Positions 2,122 to 17,278 of a stretch of DNA of 64,000 nucleotides are shown in pieces (position 1 is the stretch's first letter; each line of letters starts with the position of its first letter). The position numbers and the translations under genes are program-made. The notes beneath the pieces were generated by a model, which worked only from the letters and a program-made list of their open reading frames with translations, was not told the origin of the DNA and made no database searches. Origin of the DNA: Minisyncoccota bacterium (lineage in GTDB: Bacteria > Patescibacteriota > Minisyncoccia > Phycocordibacterales > JABMNX01). The DNA lies in contig JAPHQU010000003.1 in assembly GCA_026195275.1 (NCBI GenBank), positions 71,852-135,851 of the forward strand, in the 5' to 3' direction.

Positions 2122-4956
2122 ATGAGAGAGTACGACCATACAGGGATAGAGAAGAAGTGGCAGAAGAAGTGGGCTGAAGACGGTCTGTATCACACCGGAG
2201 AAGATTCAAAGAAAGAGAAATGCTACGTTCTTGATATGTTCCCATACCCGTCGGGGGAAGGACTTCATGTTGGTCATCCAAAAGGATATATCGCAACTGA
2301 CGTGTACTCTCGTTTTAAGCGTATGTCCGGATGCAACACGCTTCACCCAATGGGGTGGGACGCGTTTGGTTTGCCTGCCGAGCAGTATGCTCTGAAGAAC
2401 AGAGTCCACCCTCGTGTTGCGGTAGAGAAGAACGTGGCGCGCTTTAGAGAGCAGCTCAGCAATATTGGATTCAATTATGATTGGGATAGAGAAATCAATA
2501 CCACTGACCCCGACTATTACAAATGGACACAGTGGATCTTCTTAAAATTACATGAGAAGGGTCTCGCATATGAATCGTACGAACCGATCAACTGGTGCCC
2601 TTCGTGTTTGACAGGTCTCGCGAACGAAGATCTTGAAGACGGAGCGTGCGAGCGTTGTGGGAGCGAGATTGAGAAAAAGCCGATTAGGCAGTGGGTGCTT
2701 AAGATAACTGATTATGCCGATCGTATGCTCGATGACCTCGAGCTGCTTCCCGAGTGGTCGGAGTCGGTTAAGGAGCTTCAGCGCAATTGGATCGGGCGGA
2801 GTCGGGGCGCACGGATTACTTTTAGTATTAGCGGAGGAGAGTCTGTAGATGTTTTTACAACACGCCCTGACACACTCTTTGGTGCAACATATGTGGTACT
2901 TGCGCCGGAACACGCTCTTGTTGCGAAACTTCTCGAGGACAAGGGCTCAGGAATAAAAAACCAGGAAGAGATACTTCGATATGTCGAAGTATCCGGTAAG
3001 AAGTCTGAACTTGATCGACTCGACGCAACAAAGGAGAAGACCGGGGTCAAACTGGAGGGTATTGTGGCGACCAATCCGGCAAACGGTGAAGAGGTGCCTG
3101 TTTTTATAGCCGATTACGTACTTGCCGGATATGGTACAGGTGCGATCATGGCGGTTCCTTCGCACGATGAACGTGACTTTGAATTCGCGAAGAAGTTTCG
3201 TTTGCCGATACGAGAGGTGGTCATACCAAACATCATTGACCACAGAAATCCGCCCGTTAACGGGAAGGAATCAAAGGAGCGTCAAAATGTGCATGCAATC
3301 GTGTATTACCCAAAAGAAGAGAAGTACCTTGCGTTGAAATGGAAGAAGTTTGATTGGATCACTTTCCCGATGGGCGGGGTTGAGGAGGGAGAGAGTGTTG
3401 AGGATGCTGCGCGGCGCGAGGTTGCCGAGGAGACCGGGTTCACGAACCTCAAGCTTGTAAAGGTGCTTCCAAATCGCGCGCGCGCGGAGTATTTTGCGGC
3501 CCATAAAGACGAGAATCGAATTGCATACACTTCTGCGGTCGTGTTTGAACTTATGAGCGAAGATCGCGTTCCCATAGATGAGACCGAGCAAGAACAACAC
3601 GAAATAATATGGCTCAACGAATCGATGCTCAACTACGAGAACATGACACATGCAGAGATTGGTGAATGGCAGCGGCAACTTGCCGGGGTTGAGATGTACT
3701 CCGGTCATGGTGTGCTTGTTGATTCAGGTGATTTTTCTGGCATGAACTCAGAGGAGGCAAAAGAAGCAATCACCAAAAAGGTTGGTGGTGAGATGACGGT
3801 TACGTATCGACTTCAAGACTGGGTCTTCTCGCGACAGCGATACTGGGGGGAGCCGATCCCGATTATTCATTGTGAGACGTGTGGTGCGGTCCCGGTTCCT
3901 GAAGAAGATCTTCCGGTGCTTCTTCCCGATGTTGAGCACTATGAGCCAACCGGCACAGGGGAGTCGCCACTTGCAAATATTGAAGGGTGGGTGAATACAA
4001 CCTGTCCATCGTGTGGTGGCGCGGGAACGCGCGAGACCAACACAATGCCGCAGTGGGCGGGGTCCTCTTGGTATTACTTGAGGTTTATGGACCCGCACAA
4101 TGACCATGCACTCGTAGAGAAAGGCGTGGAGAAGTACTGGGGGCAGGTCGATGTCTATGTTGGAGGGGTTGAACATGCAACACGGCACCTTATTTATGCT
4201 CGCTTTTGGCACAAGTTTCTCTACGACATTGGAGTTGTCTCAACCAAAGAGCCATTCAAGCGTCTCTACACTGTCGGTCTGATCCAGGCCGAAGATGGGA
4301 GGAAGATGAGCAAGCGATGGGGGAATGTGATCAACCCGGACGACATCGTCGAGAGAGTTGGTGCTGACACGCTTCGTGTATATGAGATGTTTATGGGGCC
4401 GTTTGGCAACTCGATCGCGTGGAGTACCGACAACACGATCGGCTCACGTCGGTTCATTGAACGCATATGGAAGCTCAAGGAAAAGATCGGTACCGGATCA
4501 GTTCCTGAGACTGTCTTCCATAAGACGATCCAGAAGGTGGGGTCTGATATTGCCACATTTAATTTCAATACTGCAATTTCGCAGATGATGATTTGTGCGA
4601 ACTGTGCTGAAGAAGAAGGACTTACTGAAGATCAATACAAGACACTTCTCGTACTCTTTGCGCCGTTTGCACCCCATGTTACTGAAGAGCTCTGGCATCA
4701 ACTTGGTGAGAAAGACTCAATACATCTCGAATCTTGGCCGCAGTATGACCAGGAGAAACTGGTCTCTGATATAGCTTCAGTGGTGGTACAGATAAACGGG
4801 AAGACACGTGGAGTGGCTGAAGTCGCTACTGGAGCTCTTGAAGCAGATGTTCTCAATCAGGTGCGAGCAGACAAAGCGTTCGCACGCTGGCTTGGGGAGG
4901 GAGAATTAAAGAAGGTCGTCTATGTCAAAGATAAGTTGATAAACTTAGTTATTTGA
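2122..4956 (+). CDS. leuS: Leucyl-tRNA synthetase carrying an internal Nudix-hydrolase-like insertion
   Basis: 944-aa ORF. It has the HVGHPKGY (HIGH) motif, the TTRPDT editing (CP1) motif, AVPSHDERDFEFA, YRLQDWVFSRQRYWGEPIP and KMSKRWGN (KMSKS). It ends with TGA. Confidence 0.95.
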   Translation: MREYDHTGIEKKWQKKWAEDGLYHTGEDSKKEKCYVLDMFPYPSGEGLHVGHPKGYIATDVYSRFKRMSGCNTLHPMGWDAFGLPAEQYALKNRVHPRVAVEKNVARFREQLSNIGFNYDWDREINTTDPDYYKWTQWIFLKLHEKGLAYESYEPINWCPSCLTGLANEDLEDGACERCGSEIEKKPIRQWVLKITDYADRMLDDLELLPEWSESVKELQRNWIGRSRGARITFSISGGESVDVFTTRPDTLFGATYVVLAPEHALVAKLLEDKGSGIKNQEEILRYVEVSGKKSELDRLDATKEKTGVKLEGIVATNPANGEEVPVFIADYVLAGYGTGAIMAVPSHDERDFEFAKKFRLPIREVVIPNIIDHRNPPVNGKESKERQNVHAIVYYPKEEKYLALKWKKFDWITFPMGGVEEGESVEDAARREVAEETGFTNLKLVKVLPNRARAEYFAAHKDENRIAYTSAVVFELMSEDRVPIDETEQEQHEIIWLNESMLNYENMTHAEIGEWQRQLAGVEMYSGHGVLVDSGDFSGMNSEEAKEAITKKVGGEMTVTYRLQDWVFSRQRYWGEPIPIIHCETCGAVPVPEEDLPVLLPDVEHYEPTGTGESPLANIEGWVNTTCPSCGGAGTRETNTMPQWAGSSWYYLRFMDPHNDHALVEKGVEKYWGQVDVYVGGVEHATRHLIYARFWHKFLYDIGVVSTKEPFKRLYTVGLIQAEDGRKMSKRWGNVINPDDIVERVGADTLRVYEMFMGPFGNSIAWSTDNTIGSRRFIERIWKLKEKIGTGSVPETVFHKTIQKVGSDIATFNFNTAISQMMICANCAEEEGLTEDQYKTLLVLFAPFAPHVTEELWHQLGEKDSIHLESWPQYDQEKLVSDIASVVVQINGKTRGVAEVATGALEADVLNQVRADKAFARWLGEGELKKVVYVKDKLINLVI
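3229..3700 (+). other. Nudix-fold domain inserted in-frame inside LeuS
   Basis: About 150 extra residues sit between the HDERD region and the GVLVDSGDF segment, which are separated by about 20 aa in typical LeuS. The insertion contains a perfect Nudix box GGVEEGESVEDAARREVAEETGF (GX5EX7REUXEEXGU) at nt 3373-3441. Confidence 0.7.
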
Positions 4957-6147: not shown

Positions 6148-7476
6148 ATGAGTTTCAATCCTTTTAAGATACTCGAGGATTTTGGTATCCCAACAATCGG
6201 TCTGGTGATCGCCTCTTTTTTTGTCTTACTTGGTATTGTCTACTACTGGACCCCCGCAGAGATGACCTTCACTCCTGCGGCTCGCTTGCTTCTTCTCTCT
6301 GCGCCGATCTGGGTGCCGATTATACTCAGTGTTACATTTTGGAAGATTTGGCTTGAATATATTCGTGCTAAGTTTATTAGCTCCCAGAAGCACGTGCTTC
6401 TTGAGATCAAATTGCCACGTGAAGTGGTGCGTTCTCCTCAAGCAATGGAGACCTTGCTCACCAACCTTCATATTGGGATGGGTGAGGGTACATTCATCAA
6501 CCGCTACATTGAGGGTAGGGTGCGCCCCTGGTATTCGCTTGAGATCGCCTCACTTGGTGGACGAATCCACTTCTTTATTTGGACACGTGCATTTCTCAGA
6601 GATGTAGTTGAGGCGCAGATCTACGGACAATATCCAATGGTTGAGGTACACGAAGTTGAGGATTACGCACAAAAACTTGGTTATCATCCTGATCGGTATG
6701 GTCTATGGGGGTGTGATTTCAAACTTACCGGCAAGGACGCGTATCCGATCAAGACGTACATTGATTACGGTCTTGATAAGGATCCAAAGGAGGAATATAA
6801 GATCGATCCGATGGCAGGATTCTTCGAGTTCTTGAGTCATATCGGGCCGGATGAGCAGATTTGGTTTCAGCTCATGATACGAATGAATAAAGACAAACTC
6901 CGTGAAGACCGAAAATATAAGAAAGGTGTGTTTTTTGTTGAGACCACGAGCTGGAAAGATGAGGCTAAAGAAGAAATAGAAAAGATTCGAGAGGAATCGC
7001 GCCCTGAAACCTCCGGAGATTTCCCCGGATTCCCCAACCCAACACCGGGGCAGACTGACAAGATCAAGGCGCTTGAACGGAGTGTTTCAAAACTGGGGTT
7101 TGATGCGGGTATGCGGGGTATCTACATCGCAAAGAAGGACGCGTTCAACCCATCGAACATCGCAGCTCTGACATCATCACTTAAACAACTGAACGCGAGT
7201 GATCGAAACGGTATTGCACCAACACGTTGGTTCACTGAGTTTGGCTACCCGTGGCAGGATATTTTTGGGAAGAAGCAGGAGAATTACCGCAAATGGATTA
7301 TTGATGCGTACCGTCGACGCTCGTGGTTCCATGAGCCATATAAGACACCCTGGTTTGTATTTAATACTGAGGAAATTGCAACGATCTTCCATTTCCCCGG
7401 TTCAGTTGTTCAGGCTCCGACCCTTGAGCGAATCTCATCCACGAAAGGAGAGGCGCCACCAAATCTTCCCGGTTAG
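6148..7476 (+). CDS. Hypothetical membrane-anchored protein (2 N-terminal TM helices, large soluble domain)
   Basis: 442-aa ORF. It has hydrophobic N-terminal helices and no motifs I recognise. Confidence 0.55.
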   Translation: MSFNPFKILEDFGIPTIGLVIASFFVLLGIVYYWTPAEMTFTPAARLLLLSAPIWVPIILSVTFWKIWLEYIRAKFISSQKHVLLEIKLPREVVRSPQAMETLLTNLHIGMGEGTFINRYIEGRVRPWYSLEIASLGGRIHFFIWTRAFLRDVVEAQIYGQYPMVEVHEVEDYAQKLGYHPDRYGLWGCDFKLTGKDAYPIKTYIDYGLDKDPKEEYKIDPMAGFFEFLSHIGPDEQIWFQLMIRMNKDKLREDRKYKKGVFFVETTSWKDEAKEEIEKIREESRPETSGDFPGFPNPTPGQTDKIKALERSVSKLGFDAGMRGIYIAKKDAFNPSNIAALTSSLKQLNASDRNGIAPTRWFTEFGYPWQDIFGKKQENYRKWIIDAYRRRSWFHEPYKTPWFVFNTEEIATIFHFPGSVVQAPTLERISSTKGEAPPNLPG

Positions 7477-15189: not shown

Positions 15190-15405
15190 ATGAATCTACT
15201 TTTTTGGGGACTCACTATAGGAATTATCGGTAAAGTCATTCTCGGTTTTACGGTTATGAGTGTGCACTGGAAGATTGTGAAAGAACACAAGATAGACAAA
15301 GCGGTACTTACCGAGATGCGGCGGGAGCGCAACCTTGCTCTTCTCGGTATTATTTTTATGCTCGTAGGATACATTTTGGAGCTGCTATTCTATGAATTCA
15401 TCTGA
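15190..15405 (+). CDS. Small hypothetical membrane protein
   Basis: 71 aa with 2 hydrophobic helices. It overlaps the alaS start by 14 nt. Confidence 0.35.
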   Translation: MNLLFWGLTIGIIGKVILGFTVMSVHWKIVKEHKIDKAVLTEMRRERNLALLGIIFMLVGYILELLFYEFI

Positions 15406-17278
15406 GATACGACAAAAATACCTAGACTTCTTTAACGAGCGCGGGCACGCGGTTATCCCGTCTTCTTCACTGCGTCCGGAGAATGACCCCACCACCCTCT
15501 TTACCGGCTCAGGGATGCAGCCCTTGTTGCCATATTTTCTCGGAGAGGAACACTCAAAGGGCACACGAGTCGTTAACTCACAGAAATGTTTTCGTGCTGA
15601 GGATATCGAGGAAGTGGGCGACAATCGCCATACCACTTTCTTTGAGATGCTCGGCAACTGGTCTTTTGGTGACTATTTCAAAAAGGAGCAACTCCCGTGG
15701 GTGTTTGGTTTTCTCACCGACGTCGTTGGGCTTAACCCACAAAAGCTCTATGTAACCGCATTCCTCGGAGATGAGGTGCTTGGTATTCCGAAGGATACTG
15801 AATCGGCAGATATCTGGAAGGAGCTCTTCAAAGGAAAGGGAATTAACGCAAGAGATGCCGAGATTGGTTCGGAAGAAGATGGTGGTAAGCGCGGCATGAA
15901 GGAAGGCGAGCGCATTTTCTACTACGATTCTTCTAAAAACTGGTGGAGTAGAGCAGGGAAGCCAGAGAATATGCCCGCGGGTGAACCGGGTGGCCCAGAC
16001 TCGGAGGTCTTTTATGAATTCACTGACATCGAGCATGACTCCAGATTTGGTGAGCACTGTCACCCGAACTGTGACTGCGGGCGCTTTATGGAGATCGGCA
16101 ACTCGGTGTTTATGGAGTACCTCAAGAAAGAAGATGGTTCATTTGAACCGCTTGCGCAGAAGAACGTCGACTTCGGTGGGGGGCTTGAGCGTATTGCCGC
16201 GGCAGCAAATGATGACGCGGATATGTTTAAAATTGATTCACTGAGAGGTATCATCTCTGAGATTGAAAAGGTTTCCGGTAAGTCATATTCAGAAGAACAA
16301 TACCGGGAAGATTTTCGGGTTATAGCAGACCATATGCGCGCCGCAGTATTTATGATTGACGACGGAGTATTCCCTTCAAACACTGAACAAGGGTACTTTG
16401 TTCGGCGGCTTATACGACGCTCGGTAATGAAGGTGCGCTCACTTAACTTAGCAGAATCCTTTCCGCTCGGAACCGTCGCTCATATTGTTGCAGAGGTGTA
16501 CAAAGATTTCTATCCGGCACTCAAAGAGAAGGCTGACATCATTGATAAGACGATAACCGAAGAAGAAACGAGGTTTAATCTCACCCTTGAAAAAGGGATG
16601 AAAGAATTTGAGAAGTTGAGCAGCAGCGACATCTCCGGACATGATGCATTTGTGCTCTTTACCACGTATGGTTTCCCGCTGGAGCTTACTGAAGAGCTTG
16701 CGGTTGAGAAGGGAATCTCGGTTGAGAAGGCAGCGTTCGATGAAGAGATGGAAAGACATCAAGAACTTTCTCGAGCCGGTTCCGAGCAGAAATTCAAAGG
16801 CGGCCTCGCTGACCAGAGCCAAAAAACGGTTGAGTACCATACCGCCACACACCTCTTGCTTGCGGGGCTCCGCAAAGAACTTGGTGATAATGTGCATCAA
16901 GCTGGCTCAAACATCACCAGTGAGCGACTGCGTTTTGACTTCACGCACCCGGAGAAAGTCGACCGAGAGACACTCGATCGCATTGAAGGGTTTGTAAACA
17001 GCGCAATCAAAGCGGGCGCACACGTTGAAACCGAGACCATGAAGAAAGAAGACGCAGAGAGTGACCCGACTGTTGAAGGGAGCTTCTGGGAGAAGTATCC
17101 GGACGAGGTAAAAGTCTACACGATTAGAGACGACAACGGCATTGTCTATTCACGCGAGCTTTGTGGTGGCCCCCATGTGGAGAATACCGCCACGATTAGA
17201 GGAGTGTTTAAGATCGTCAAAGAGAGTTCATCATCAGCTGGCGTACGACGCATCAAAGCTGTTTTGGAAGAGGATTAA
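15392..17278 (+). CDS. alaS: Alanyl-tRNA synthetase, short form lacking the C-terminal C-Ala domain
   Basis: The N-terminal catalytic core (FTGSGMQP..., FEMLGNWSFGDYFK) and the editing-domain motifs HTATHLL and CGGPHV are present. It is 628 aa long against about 870 in typical bacteria. Confidence 0.9.
   Translation: MNSSEIRQKYLDFFNERGHAVIPSSSLRPENDPTTLFTGSGMQPLLPYFLGEEHSKGTRVVNSQKCFRAEDIEEVGDNRHTTFFEMLGNWSFGDYFKKEQLPWVFGFLTDVVGLNPQKLYVTAFLGDEVLGIPKDTESADIWKELFKGKGINARDAEIGSEEDGGKRGMKEGERIFYYDSSKNWWSRAGKPENMPAGEPGGPDSEVFYEFTDIEHDSRFGEHCHPNCDCGRFMEIGNSVFMEYLKKEDGSFEPLAQKNVDFGGGLERIAAAANDDADMFKIDSLRGIISEIEKVSGKSYSEEQYREDFRVIADHMRAAVFMIDDGVFPSNTEQGYFVRRLIRRSVMKVRSLNLAESFPLGTVAHIVAEVYKDFYPALKEKADIIDKTITEEETRFNLTLEKGMKEFEKLSSSDISGHDAFVLFTTYGFPLELTEELAVEKGISVEKAAFDEEMERHQELSRAGSEQKFKGGLADQSQKTVEYHTATHLLLAGLRKELGDNVHQAGSNITSERLRFDFTHPEKVDRETLDRIEGFVNSAIKAGAHVETETMKKEDAESDPTVEGSFWEKYPDEVKVYTIRDDNGIVYSRELCGGPHVENTATIRGVFKIVKESSSSAGVRRIKAVLEED

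Follow-up and report, generated by a model that had tools for sequence, protein, structure and literature searches.

A predicted Nudix hydrolase domain nested in the CP1 editing domain of leucyl-tRNA synthetase in Patescibacteria

The window analysed here is a stretch of 64,000 nucleotides from a Minisyncoccota bacterium (GenBank assembly GCA_026195275.1, contig JAPHQU010000003.1, positions 71,852 to 135,851), and it carries leuS, the gene for leucyl-tRNA synthetase (LeuRS; the gene product is called LeuS below). Here, we report that this LeuS holds a Nudix domain in place of a short surface loop of its CP1 editing domain, and we describe the conservation and predicted fold of the domain, its free-standing homologues and its presence or absence among close relatives. 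The gene is a single unbroken open reading frame (ORF) of 944 aa (2122..4956, + strand). A first-pass annotation, made from the DNA letters alone, had called such a continuous frame, and this is borne out by one uninterrupted ORF scoring 981.7 bits against the bacterial equivalog profile TIGR00396 leuS_bact (cutoff 548.4), with the match split into two stretches by the insert. The features that concern the insert are as follows.

2122..4956, + strand: leuS coding sequence, 944 aa plus stop, LeuRS body with the nested Nudix domain (ORF, TIGR00396, structure superposition)
3229..3690, + strand: nested Nudix domain, residues 370-523, in place of a short CP1 surface loop
3373..3441, + strand: Nudix box GGVEEGESVEDAARREVAEETGF, residues 418-440, with the metal-binding residues E433, E436 and E437 (motif, conservation)
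3502..3519, + strand: subfamily signature HKDENR, residues 461-466, in the beta-hairpin turn after the specificity X-loop (conservation)

The distance from the HDERD motif to the RLQDW..SRQR motif is 215 residues in the window, where canonical bacterial LeuS has 65-75, which gives the insert a length of about 145-150 aa. In the alignment with Thermus thermophilus LeuRS, residues 363-375 of the latter, a 13-residue CP1 loop, are replaced by window residues 368-524. Both measurements agree with the initial placement of an insert of about 150 residues after HDERD (3229-3700, residues 370-526), whose coordinates were accurate. The nested domain consists of a lead-in with the pattern IDxxNPPxxGK..R, the Nudix fold itself and a C-terminal helix. 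The Pfam profile PF00293 (NUDIX) matches residues 388-506 with 53.6 bits, against a gathering score of 21.1, and gives 57.8 bits when the insert is scanned alone. The Nudix box GGVEEGESVEDAARREVAEETGF fits the consensus GX5EX7REUXEEXGU, its final hydrophobic residue being F, which confirms the intact box with all catalytic glutamates that had been read from the sequence. An alpha/beta/alpha Nudix fold is seen in the predicted structure, and the model thus supports the earlier expectation that the insert folds as an independent Nudix domain. A second copy of this Nudix subfamily was not found within the 64-kb window.

The host enzyme appears to be uncompromised by the insertion. Its signature elements are listed here.

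2266..2277, + strand: HIGH signature HVGH, residues 49-52, class I catalytic core (motif; H49 and G51 invariant in the alignment)
2782..3222, + strand: CP1 editing domain, N-terminal part, residues 221-367 (PF13603, motifs)
3691..3819, + strand: rest of CP1 (C-terminal) with the linker back to the catalytic core, residues 524-566, GVLVDSGDF...YRLQDW (aligns with T. thermophilus LeuRS from residue 376 onward)
4303..4317, + strand: KMSKS signature KMSKR, residues 728-732 (motif, conservation)

Pfam recognises the class I catalytic core, the editing domain PF13603, the anticodon-binding domain and the NUDIX domain PF00293 in the protein; the editing domain scores 199 bits over residues 221-371 and covers profile positions 1-144 of 185, broken off at residue 371. 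The editing motifs are present as TTRPDT (246-251, threonine-rich), GTGAIM (338-343) and HDERD (348-352, with the conserved aspartate). In an alignment of 101 relatives, all three motifs are kept throughout, with T246, T247, R248, T251, H348, D349, R351 and D352 invariant, and K728, M729, S730, K731 and R732 are invariant or nearly so. AlphaFold2 models the full-length protein with confidence (mean pLDDT 91.2, pTM 0.82), and the model superimposes on solved bacterial LeuRS with target-normalised TM scores of 0.80-0.83. These enzymes (T. thermophilus 1H3N/2BYT/2BTE; Escherichia coli 4AQ7/4ARC) belong to the same family and fold (E 5e-213 to 1h3n) and have the HIGH, KMSKS, TTRPDT, GTG and HDxRD motifs in common with the window LeuS, although none of the solved structures superimposed on our model has a Nudix domain. 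The leucine-specific domain that lies ahead of KMSKS in the T. thermophilus (about 580-636) and E. coli enzymes, and that not every LeuRS has, finds no counterpart in the window LeuS, where the alignment passes from residue 723 to 728 (nt 4290-4303). Judged by length and alignment, insert-less close relatives (P0001) apparently also do without it. By its motifs and profile matches, the LeuRS body is complete and of bacterial type, with what look like intact aminoacylation and editing sites.

A trivial explanation would be that an assembly or annotation artefact, i.e., a chimeric join or a frameshift, put a Nudix gene into leuS; it called for a check, as the window probably stems from a metagenome assembly. 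The frame is continuous, and CP1 resumes in register past the insert. The GC content, the GC at third codon positions and the codon usage of the insert agree with those of the rest of leuS and of neighbouring housekeeping genes; the codon correlation to the reference vector is 0.74 for the insert and 0.68 +/- 0.05 for same-size pieces of the remaining leuS. Neither repeats flanking the insert nor compositional breaks marking a recent insertion or a chimera were found. Identical architecture recurs in other assemblies and in more than 100 protein clusters: when one genome per species was scanned, 31 loci (L001-L031) from independent assemblies were found to carry an insert that matches that of the window in size and position, mostly with a Nudix box. 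Of the 120 nearest clusters of proteins, which are 57-66% identical and 937-1003 aa long and come from NCBI, JGI, ENA and Logan, about 116 have PF00293 precomputed. These counts also answer whether related LeuS proteins in related genomes carry the insert, which they do. We consider the artefact effectively refuted and assign it a vanishingly small probability.

More than 200 LeuS proteins, mostly from Patescibacteria assemblies, have a Nudix domain in the same CP1 loop, while the insert-bearing clusters go by no other names than 'leucine--tRNA ligase' or 'class I tRNA ligase family protein'. Orthologues keep the Nudix box: in 122 of them, E433 is found in 100%, E436 in 98% and E437 in 100%. 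The ExxEE triad is intact in 198 of 204 same-site copies, in all 22 and all 14 copies at two other slots of LeuS (see below) and in 140 of 147 free-standing members. R387, K462, N465, R466, E489 and W497 stand at about 88-100% in all four of these groups, and K462, N465 and R466 of the HKDENR signature are conserved at about 94-100% in embedded and free-standing members. As far as alignments can tell, the Nudix active site is under purifying selection.

In larger LeuS proteins of Patescibacteria, the same Nudix subfamily occupies up to three slots, namely two tandem copies at the junction of the catalytic core and CP1 in addition to the CP1 loop used in the window (examples of 1290-1558 aa are P0002, P0016, P0019, P0021, P0024, P0037, P0057, P0064 and P0109). 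Other domains are hosted as well: a Ser_hydrolase (alpha/beta-hydrolase, PF06821) domain in the LeuS of L023, L026, L028, L030, L031, P0037 and P0149, a HAD domain in P0024 and, by precomputed Pfam, in P0109, a Ham1/ITPase domain in P0133 and, again by precomputed Pfam, DUF559 in P0009. LeuS appears to be a hotspot at which hydrolase domains become nested. In a minority subtype of the Nudix domain (L002, L016, L019, L023, P0049, P0099 and P0119), Gln stands at the position of E424 and Arg is absent from that of R432, a combination shared with the second tandem copy of the multi-copy LeuS. We considered whether these Q424/A432 variants are decayed domains and rejected the idea: they keep the ExxEE triad together with K462, N465, R466 and W497, i.e., all other conserved residues, and match the subtype of the second tandem copy, and are for this reason better taken as a distinct flavour.

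Some observations on individual LeuS genes are recorded here. Insert-bearing leuS genes are present in bins labelled as other than candidate phyla radiation (CPR) bacteria, i.e., L014, L018 and L029 ('uncultured Bacilli', gut metagenome-assembled genomes) and L027 ('Pacearchaeota'). With the insert removed, the LeuS of L014 and L018 show 56-58% identity to Clostridia/Anaerococcus LeuS, compared with 49.5% to that of the window, and the LeuS of L027 is closest to that of L051 ('Aenigmarchaeum'). Such occurrences may reflect lateral spread or mis-binning. In L048 (Parcubacteria), LeuS is found in two ORFs, split just past the Nudix domain (3589-4722, 378 aa, and from 4671 onward, 670 aa); a frameshift or a sequencing error could account for this, as could a gene that is truly split.

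The insert is modular. The closest LeuS relative, P0001 (789 aa), is 80% identical over the shared parts and has a short canonical loop, SNKGTEEVFT, from which the Nudix domain is cleanly absent, and the same holds for P0056 (802 aa, 72% identical over the shared parts). The module has thus been gained or lost between close relatives. The loop itself varies in length among canonical LeuS, the gap from HD to RLxDW ranging over 39-90 residues, and the loop of L051 is filled by another insert, about 115 aa long, which has no Nudix box and is not matched by the subfamily profile. When embedded and free-standing copies were placed in a neighbour-joining tree, they fell for the most part into clusters by site, and no clean history of gain and loss emerged.

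The same subfamily is found outside LeuS. A word-indexed protein search with the insert alone returned no matches; the relatives came from exhaustive and alignment-query searches. An exhaustive HMMER search with the insert retrieved 715 cluster representatives, 193 of them at E <= 1e-10, comprising LeuS proteins and fragments thereof as well as proteins of about 155-185 aa with an initial Met. The profile search retrieved 247 proteins at E <= 1e-5, and of the best 120 listed all but one have PF00293 only and are about 150-190 aa long. These free-standing members are named 'NUDIX hydrolase' or 'MutT', and a few 'leuS' by similarity; P0273, P0307 and P0337 (160-192 aa) are labelled 'leucyl-tRNA synthetase' or 'leuS', a propagating annotation error that evidently arose from similarity to the insert. 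R387, E433, E436, E437, K462, N465, R466, E489 and W497 are kept in 94-100% of the free-standing members. The free-standing Patescibacteria proteins P0271-P0386 (about 160-185 aa) are 25-40% identical to the window insert (alignment A3) and share its N-terminal lead-in, and P0136, from the exhaustive search, reaches 50% identity. They are of the D424/K432/F457 subtype, whereas most LeuS inserts are E424/R432/Y457, and, unlike the embedded copies, they are separate genes in variable contexts. Six sampled contexts showed neither linkage to leuS nor a recurrent neighbour, and wherever leuS has no insert, no free-standing copy was found within 6 kb of it. A small DUF1653 gene is found nearby in two of the six, immediately upstream in one (L087:3354-3587) and about 4.7 kb upstream in the other (L081:1014-1337, between ribonucleotide reductase subunits), which is probably a coincidence. 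Judged by its sequence relatives, the subfamily is typical of Patescibacteria, either free-standing or inside LeuS.

Comparisons with characterised Nudix enzymes were made with single sequences, profiles and the structural model. With the single insert sequence, the best matches of solved structure are the Ap6A hydrolase Ndx1 of T. thermophilus (E 9e-5), the lupin Ap4A hydrolase (2e-4) and RppH (1e-3). With a profile of 26 LeuS inserts, the lupin Ap4A hydrolase 1f3y leads (E 1.6e-9, over the Nudix-box half only), and the full-length matches are 2azw (4e-9) and AvrM14-A (5e-9). A profile dominated by free-standing members matches AvrM14-A (3e-7), then NUDT12, Dcp2 and NudC, the matches to NUDT12 and NudC being confined to the Nudix-box half. 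Foldseek with the model ranks 2azw best, and many E. coli RppH structures come directly after. The Ap4A hydrolases (lupin 1F3Y/1JKN, NudH-type), E. coli RppH and T. thermophilus Ndx1 are thus the best characterised sequence relatives and rank high structurally, the likeness lying mostly within the Nudix-box half. The best structural match, 2AZW, a MutT/Nudix protein of Enterococcus faecalis, is free-standing and only 16-18% identical. AvrM14-A/B (flax rust, PDB 8DP8/8DP9) is an mRNA-decapping Nudix enzyme (bioRxiv 10.1101/2023.11.14.566975), with which K and R of the insert's HKDENR align; it is a eukaryotic, secreted, free-standing effector that acts on m7G caps, and bacteria do not have such caps.

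Residues linked to specificity were then compared. Specificity motifs of Nudix enzymes sit in the X-loop, about 17 residues past the Nudix box (PMC5389931). The Pro typical of ADP-ribose enzymes was not found in the X-loop of the insert, where residues 455-458 are A, E, Y/F and F and the nearby P450 occurs in only 8% of orthologues, nor was the SQPWPFPxS array of NADH diphosphatases found in the insert sequence. An acidic residue about 49 residues past the Nudix box, E489, is conserved, and we take it to be a candidate additional metal ligand. The R-x-N-V of strand beta1 aligns with R8-P-N-V of RppH, which puts R387 at the position of RppH Arg8. A phosphate-binding role for R387 by this analogy was dropped: Arg8 is reported not to be proximal to substrate or product (PMC5526541), and for that reason no role can be transferred. 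Taken by sequence, the subfamily is nearest to Nudix enzymes that cut nucleoside-bridging polyphosphates (ApnA hydrolases, RppH and decapping enzymes) and seemingly falls in no characterised subfamily.

How these data are best read is a matter of probability. We lean, with somewhat better than even confidence, toward a bifunctional LeuRS that carries an autonomous, active Nudix hydrolase in a permissive CP1 loop, with dinucleoside polyphosphates or equivalent RNA 5' ends as its substrates. The LeuRS body would work as usual, and the Nudix module would be an autonomous Mg2+-dependent pyrophosphohydrolase, a passenger that, in a reduced genome, profits from being expressed together with an essential, abundant enzyme of translation and from sharing its location. 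From the conserved active site we infer that the domain is probably catalytically active, and it is probably not required for leucylation. Its autonomy is suggested by the abundant free-standing homologues unlinked to leuS and by the insert-free P0001 and P0056; that the CP1 loop is permissive is suggested by its variable length, by the non-Nudix insert in L051 and by the Ser_hydrolase, HAD and Ham1 domains which the LeuS scaffold hosts elsewhere. The substrate class would be a polyphosphate-bridged nucleotide (Ap4A/ApnA) or the 5'-triphosphate or cap structures of RNA, because the nearest relatives are the Ap4A hydrolase, RppH, Ndx1 and AvrM14.

Several observations weigh against this passenger reading or against its substrate class. 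The identity to characterised Nudix enzymes is weak (16-25%), and the function of 2AZW is listed as undetermined (PMC5389931). The best NCBIfam Nudix match is RppH (NF001936 and relatives), at 34.9-38.2 bits where the cutoff is 118, and the match to this equivalog spans only profile positions 4-81 of 155. A Tyr in the X-loop, about 17 residues past the Nudix box, marks ApnA hydrolases (Dunn et al. 1999, summarised in PMC5389931); the window has Y457 at this position (+17), the 122 inserts have Y in 66% and F in 34%, and 96% of the free-standing members have F, so we dropped the residue as an ApnA marker, since it is not diagnostic. Firmicutes-like LeuS backbones also hold the subfamily in the same loop. 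The linkers that join the Nudix domain to CP1 are short and confidently ordered in the model, and the C-terminal helix of the domain is confident only in the full-length model, which together suggest that the domain docks on CP1 at a fixed interface instead of hanging from it loosely. Finally, no other synthetase hosting the subfamily was found among the top matches, and this, together with the three slots in LeuS, hints at a real functional link with LeuRS, for which the passenger model alone offers no explanation. Given this host specificity, the ordered connections and the context-dependent helix, a coupling in cis and an RNA- or tRNA-directed role are kept alive as alternatives.

In the cis-coupled alternative, put forward in the first-pass annotation, the Nudix domain would hydrolyse Ap4A/ApnA or another adenylate by-product made at the synthetic site of its own LeuRS, the fusion serving to channel the by-product or to clear it on the spot. 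Aminoacyl-tRNA synthetases in general make Ap4A, from the aminoacyl-adenylate and ATP, and the nearest characterised relative of the insert profile is the Ap4A hydrolase 1f3y (a modest argument), with the Ap6A hydrolase Ndx1 as the best single-sequence match; the confinement of the embedded subfamily to LeuS among the top matches, at up to three slots, and the connections to CP1, ordered as modelled, also speak for it. LeuRS, however, is not known to be among the strong Ap4A producers, and an aminoacyl-adenylate has no pyrophosphate bond, which makes it an atypical substrate by established Nudix chemistry. The insert sits in the editing domain and in sequence not beside the synthetic site, free-standing members keep the same conserved residues with no linkage to leuS, an 80%-identical LeuS (P0001) does without the insert, and the unrelated hydrolase domains on the same LeuS scaffold argue against an obligate coupling. 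We therefore hold clean-up in cis to be unlikely. An RppH-like action on RNA 5' ends (5'-ppp, Np4A or NAD caps), possibly of tRNA-Leu precursors or of transcripts brought close by LeuRS, is a less probable reading still. The many RppH structures that rank right after 2azw, the RppH models as best NCBIfam match, the family profile with its best matches to AvrM14 (decapping), NUDT12, Dcp2 and NudC (deNADding), and a host protein that binds RNA are in its favour, but the scores are far under the RppH family cutoff, a gene for an RNA-binding protein (RRM_1, L081) adjoins only one of the six sampled free-standing genes, and the proposed targets overlap the substrate class already contained in the passenger reading. 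We think it quite doubtful, and slightly more so than the RNA-directed role, that the module is non-catalytic, i.e., a structural, tRNA-binding or nucleotide-sensing regulator as in the Nudix folds of NrtR or MRP-L46 type, because 97% of copies retain the ExxEE triad, among them even the Q424/A432 variants, which have it together with K462, N465, R466 and W497; that the insert-less P0001 seemingly has no leucine-specific domain either is also counted against it. The passenger hydrolase in a permissive loop remains the explanation we prefer.

The genes around leuS are ordinary CPR housekeeping genes, among them those for YchF, a DUF5671 membrane protein (the upstream neighbour, at 1150-2112), a sigma-70 region 4/HARE-HTH protein and MltG/YceG, and further MnmA, a short AlaRS, DnaK, CysRS and one tRNA-Glu. 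The AlaRS (15392-17278, + strand, 628 aa) is matched by tRNA-synt_2c and tRNA_SAD, with no match to a C-terminal domain. An ORF of 442 aa (6148-7476, + strand), which follows immediately on the leuS neighbourhood on its downstream side, has no Pfam match at E <= 1e-4.

The first-pass annotation had also been aware of no description of the architecture, and this stands in part. Our full-text literature searches turned up no account of a Nudix domain within LeuRS or any other synthetase, and neither tRNA synthetases nor tRNA ligases are mentioned anywhere in the 2017 Nudix clan review (PMC5389931); the architecture is, however, not rare, being widespread in Patescibacteria, with PF00293 precomputed in public databases. 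Synthetases with extra catalytic domains and Nudix fusions are known kinds. The IleRS with an N-acetyltransferase domain (NCBIfam NF040702) is likewise a class I synthetase with an extra catalytic domain, but there both host and passenger are different and NCBIfam describes merely a domain-containing IleRS, whereas the present passenger sits within CP1, a domain that already interrupts the Rossmann fold, and occurs in up to three copies. What is unusual is a complete, apparently active enzyme nested in CP1.

Please note that a stronger interpretation can be formulated, in which LeuRS of Patescibacteria and of some other small-genome lineages is a dedicated platform coupling the charging and editing of tRNA-Leu to the hydrolysis of polyphosphate-bridged nucleotides; we regard it as unlikely, to nearly the same degree as clean-up in cis. 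If true, the platform could destroy Ap4A/Np4N alarmones made at the synthetase, or strip 5'-triphosphate or Np4A caps from RNAs, and up to three specialised Nudix domains together with esterase, HAD and ITPase domains would form a 'tool-belt' that responds to or regulates aminoacylation. Apart from this, the sequences define a Nudix subfamily that is large, uncharacterised and recognisable by the signature R...GGxExGE...RExxEExG...(Y/F)F..HK..NR...E...W. Its nested form is conserved across hundreds of Patescibacteria lineages, multiplied to up to three copies and combined with other hydrolases. It offers a system for asking how bacteria with reduced genomes organise their 'house-cleaning' nucleotide metabolism and whether Ap4A made by a synthetase is handled at its source, with a naturally insert-free close relative as a ready-made control.

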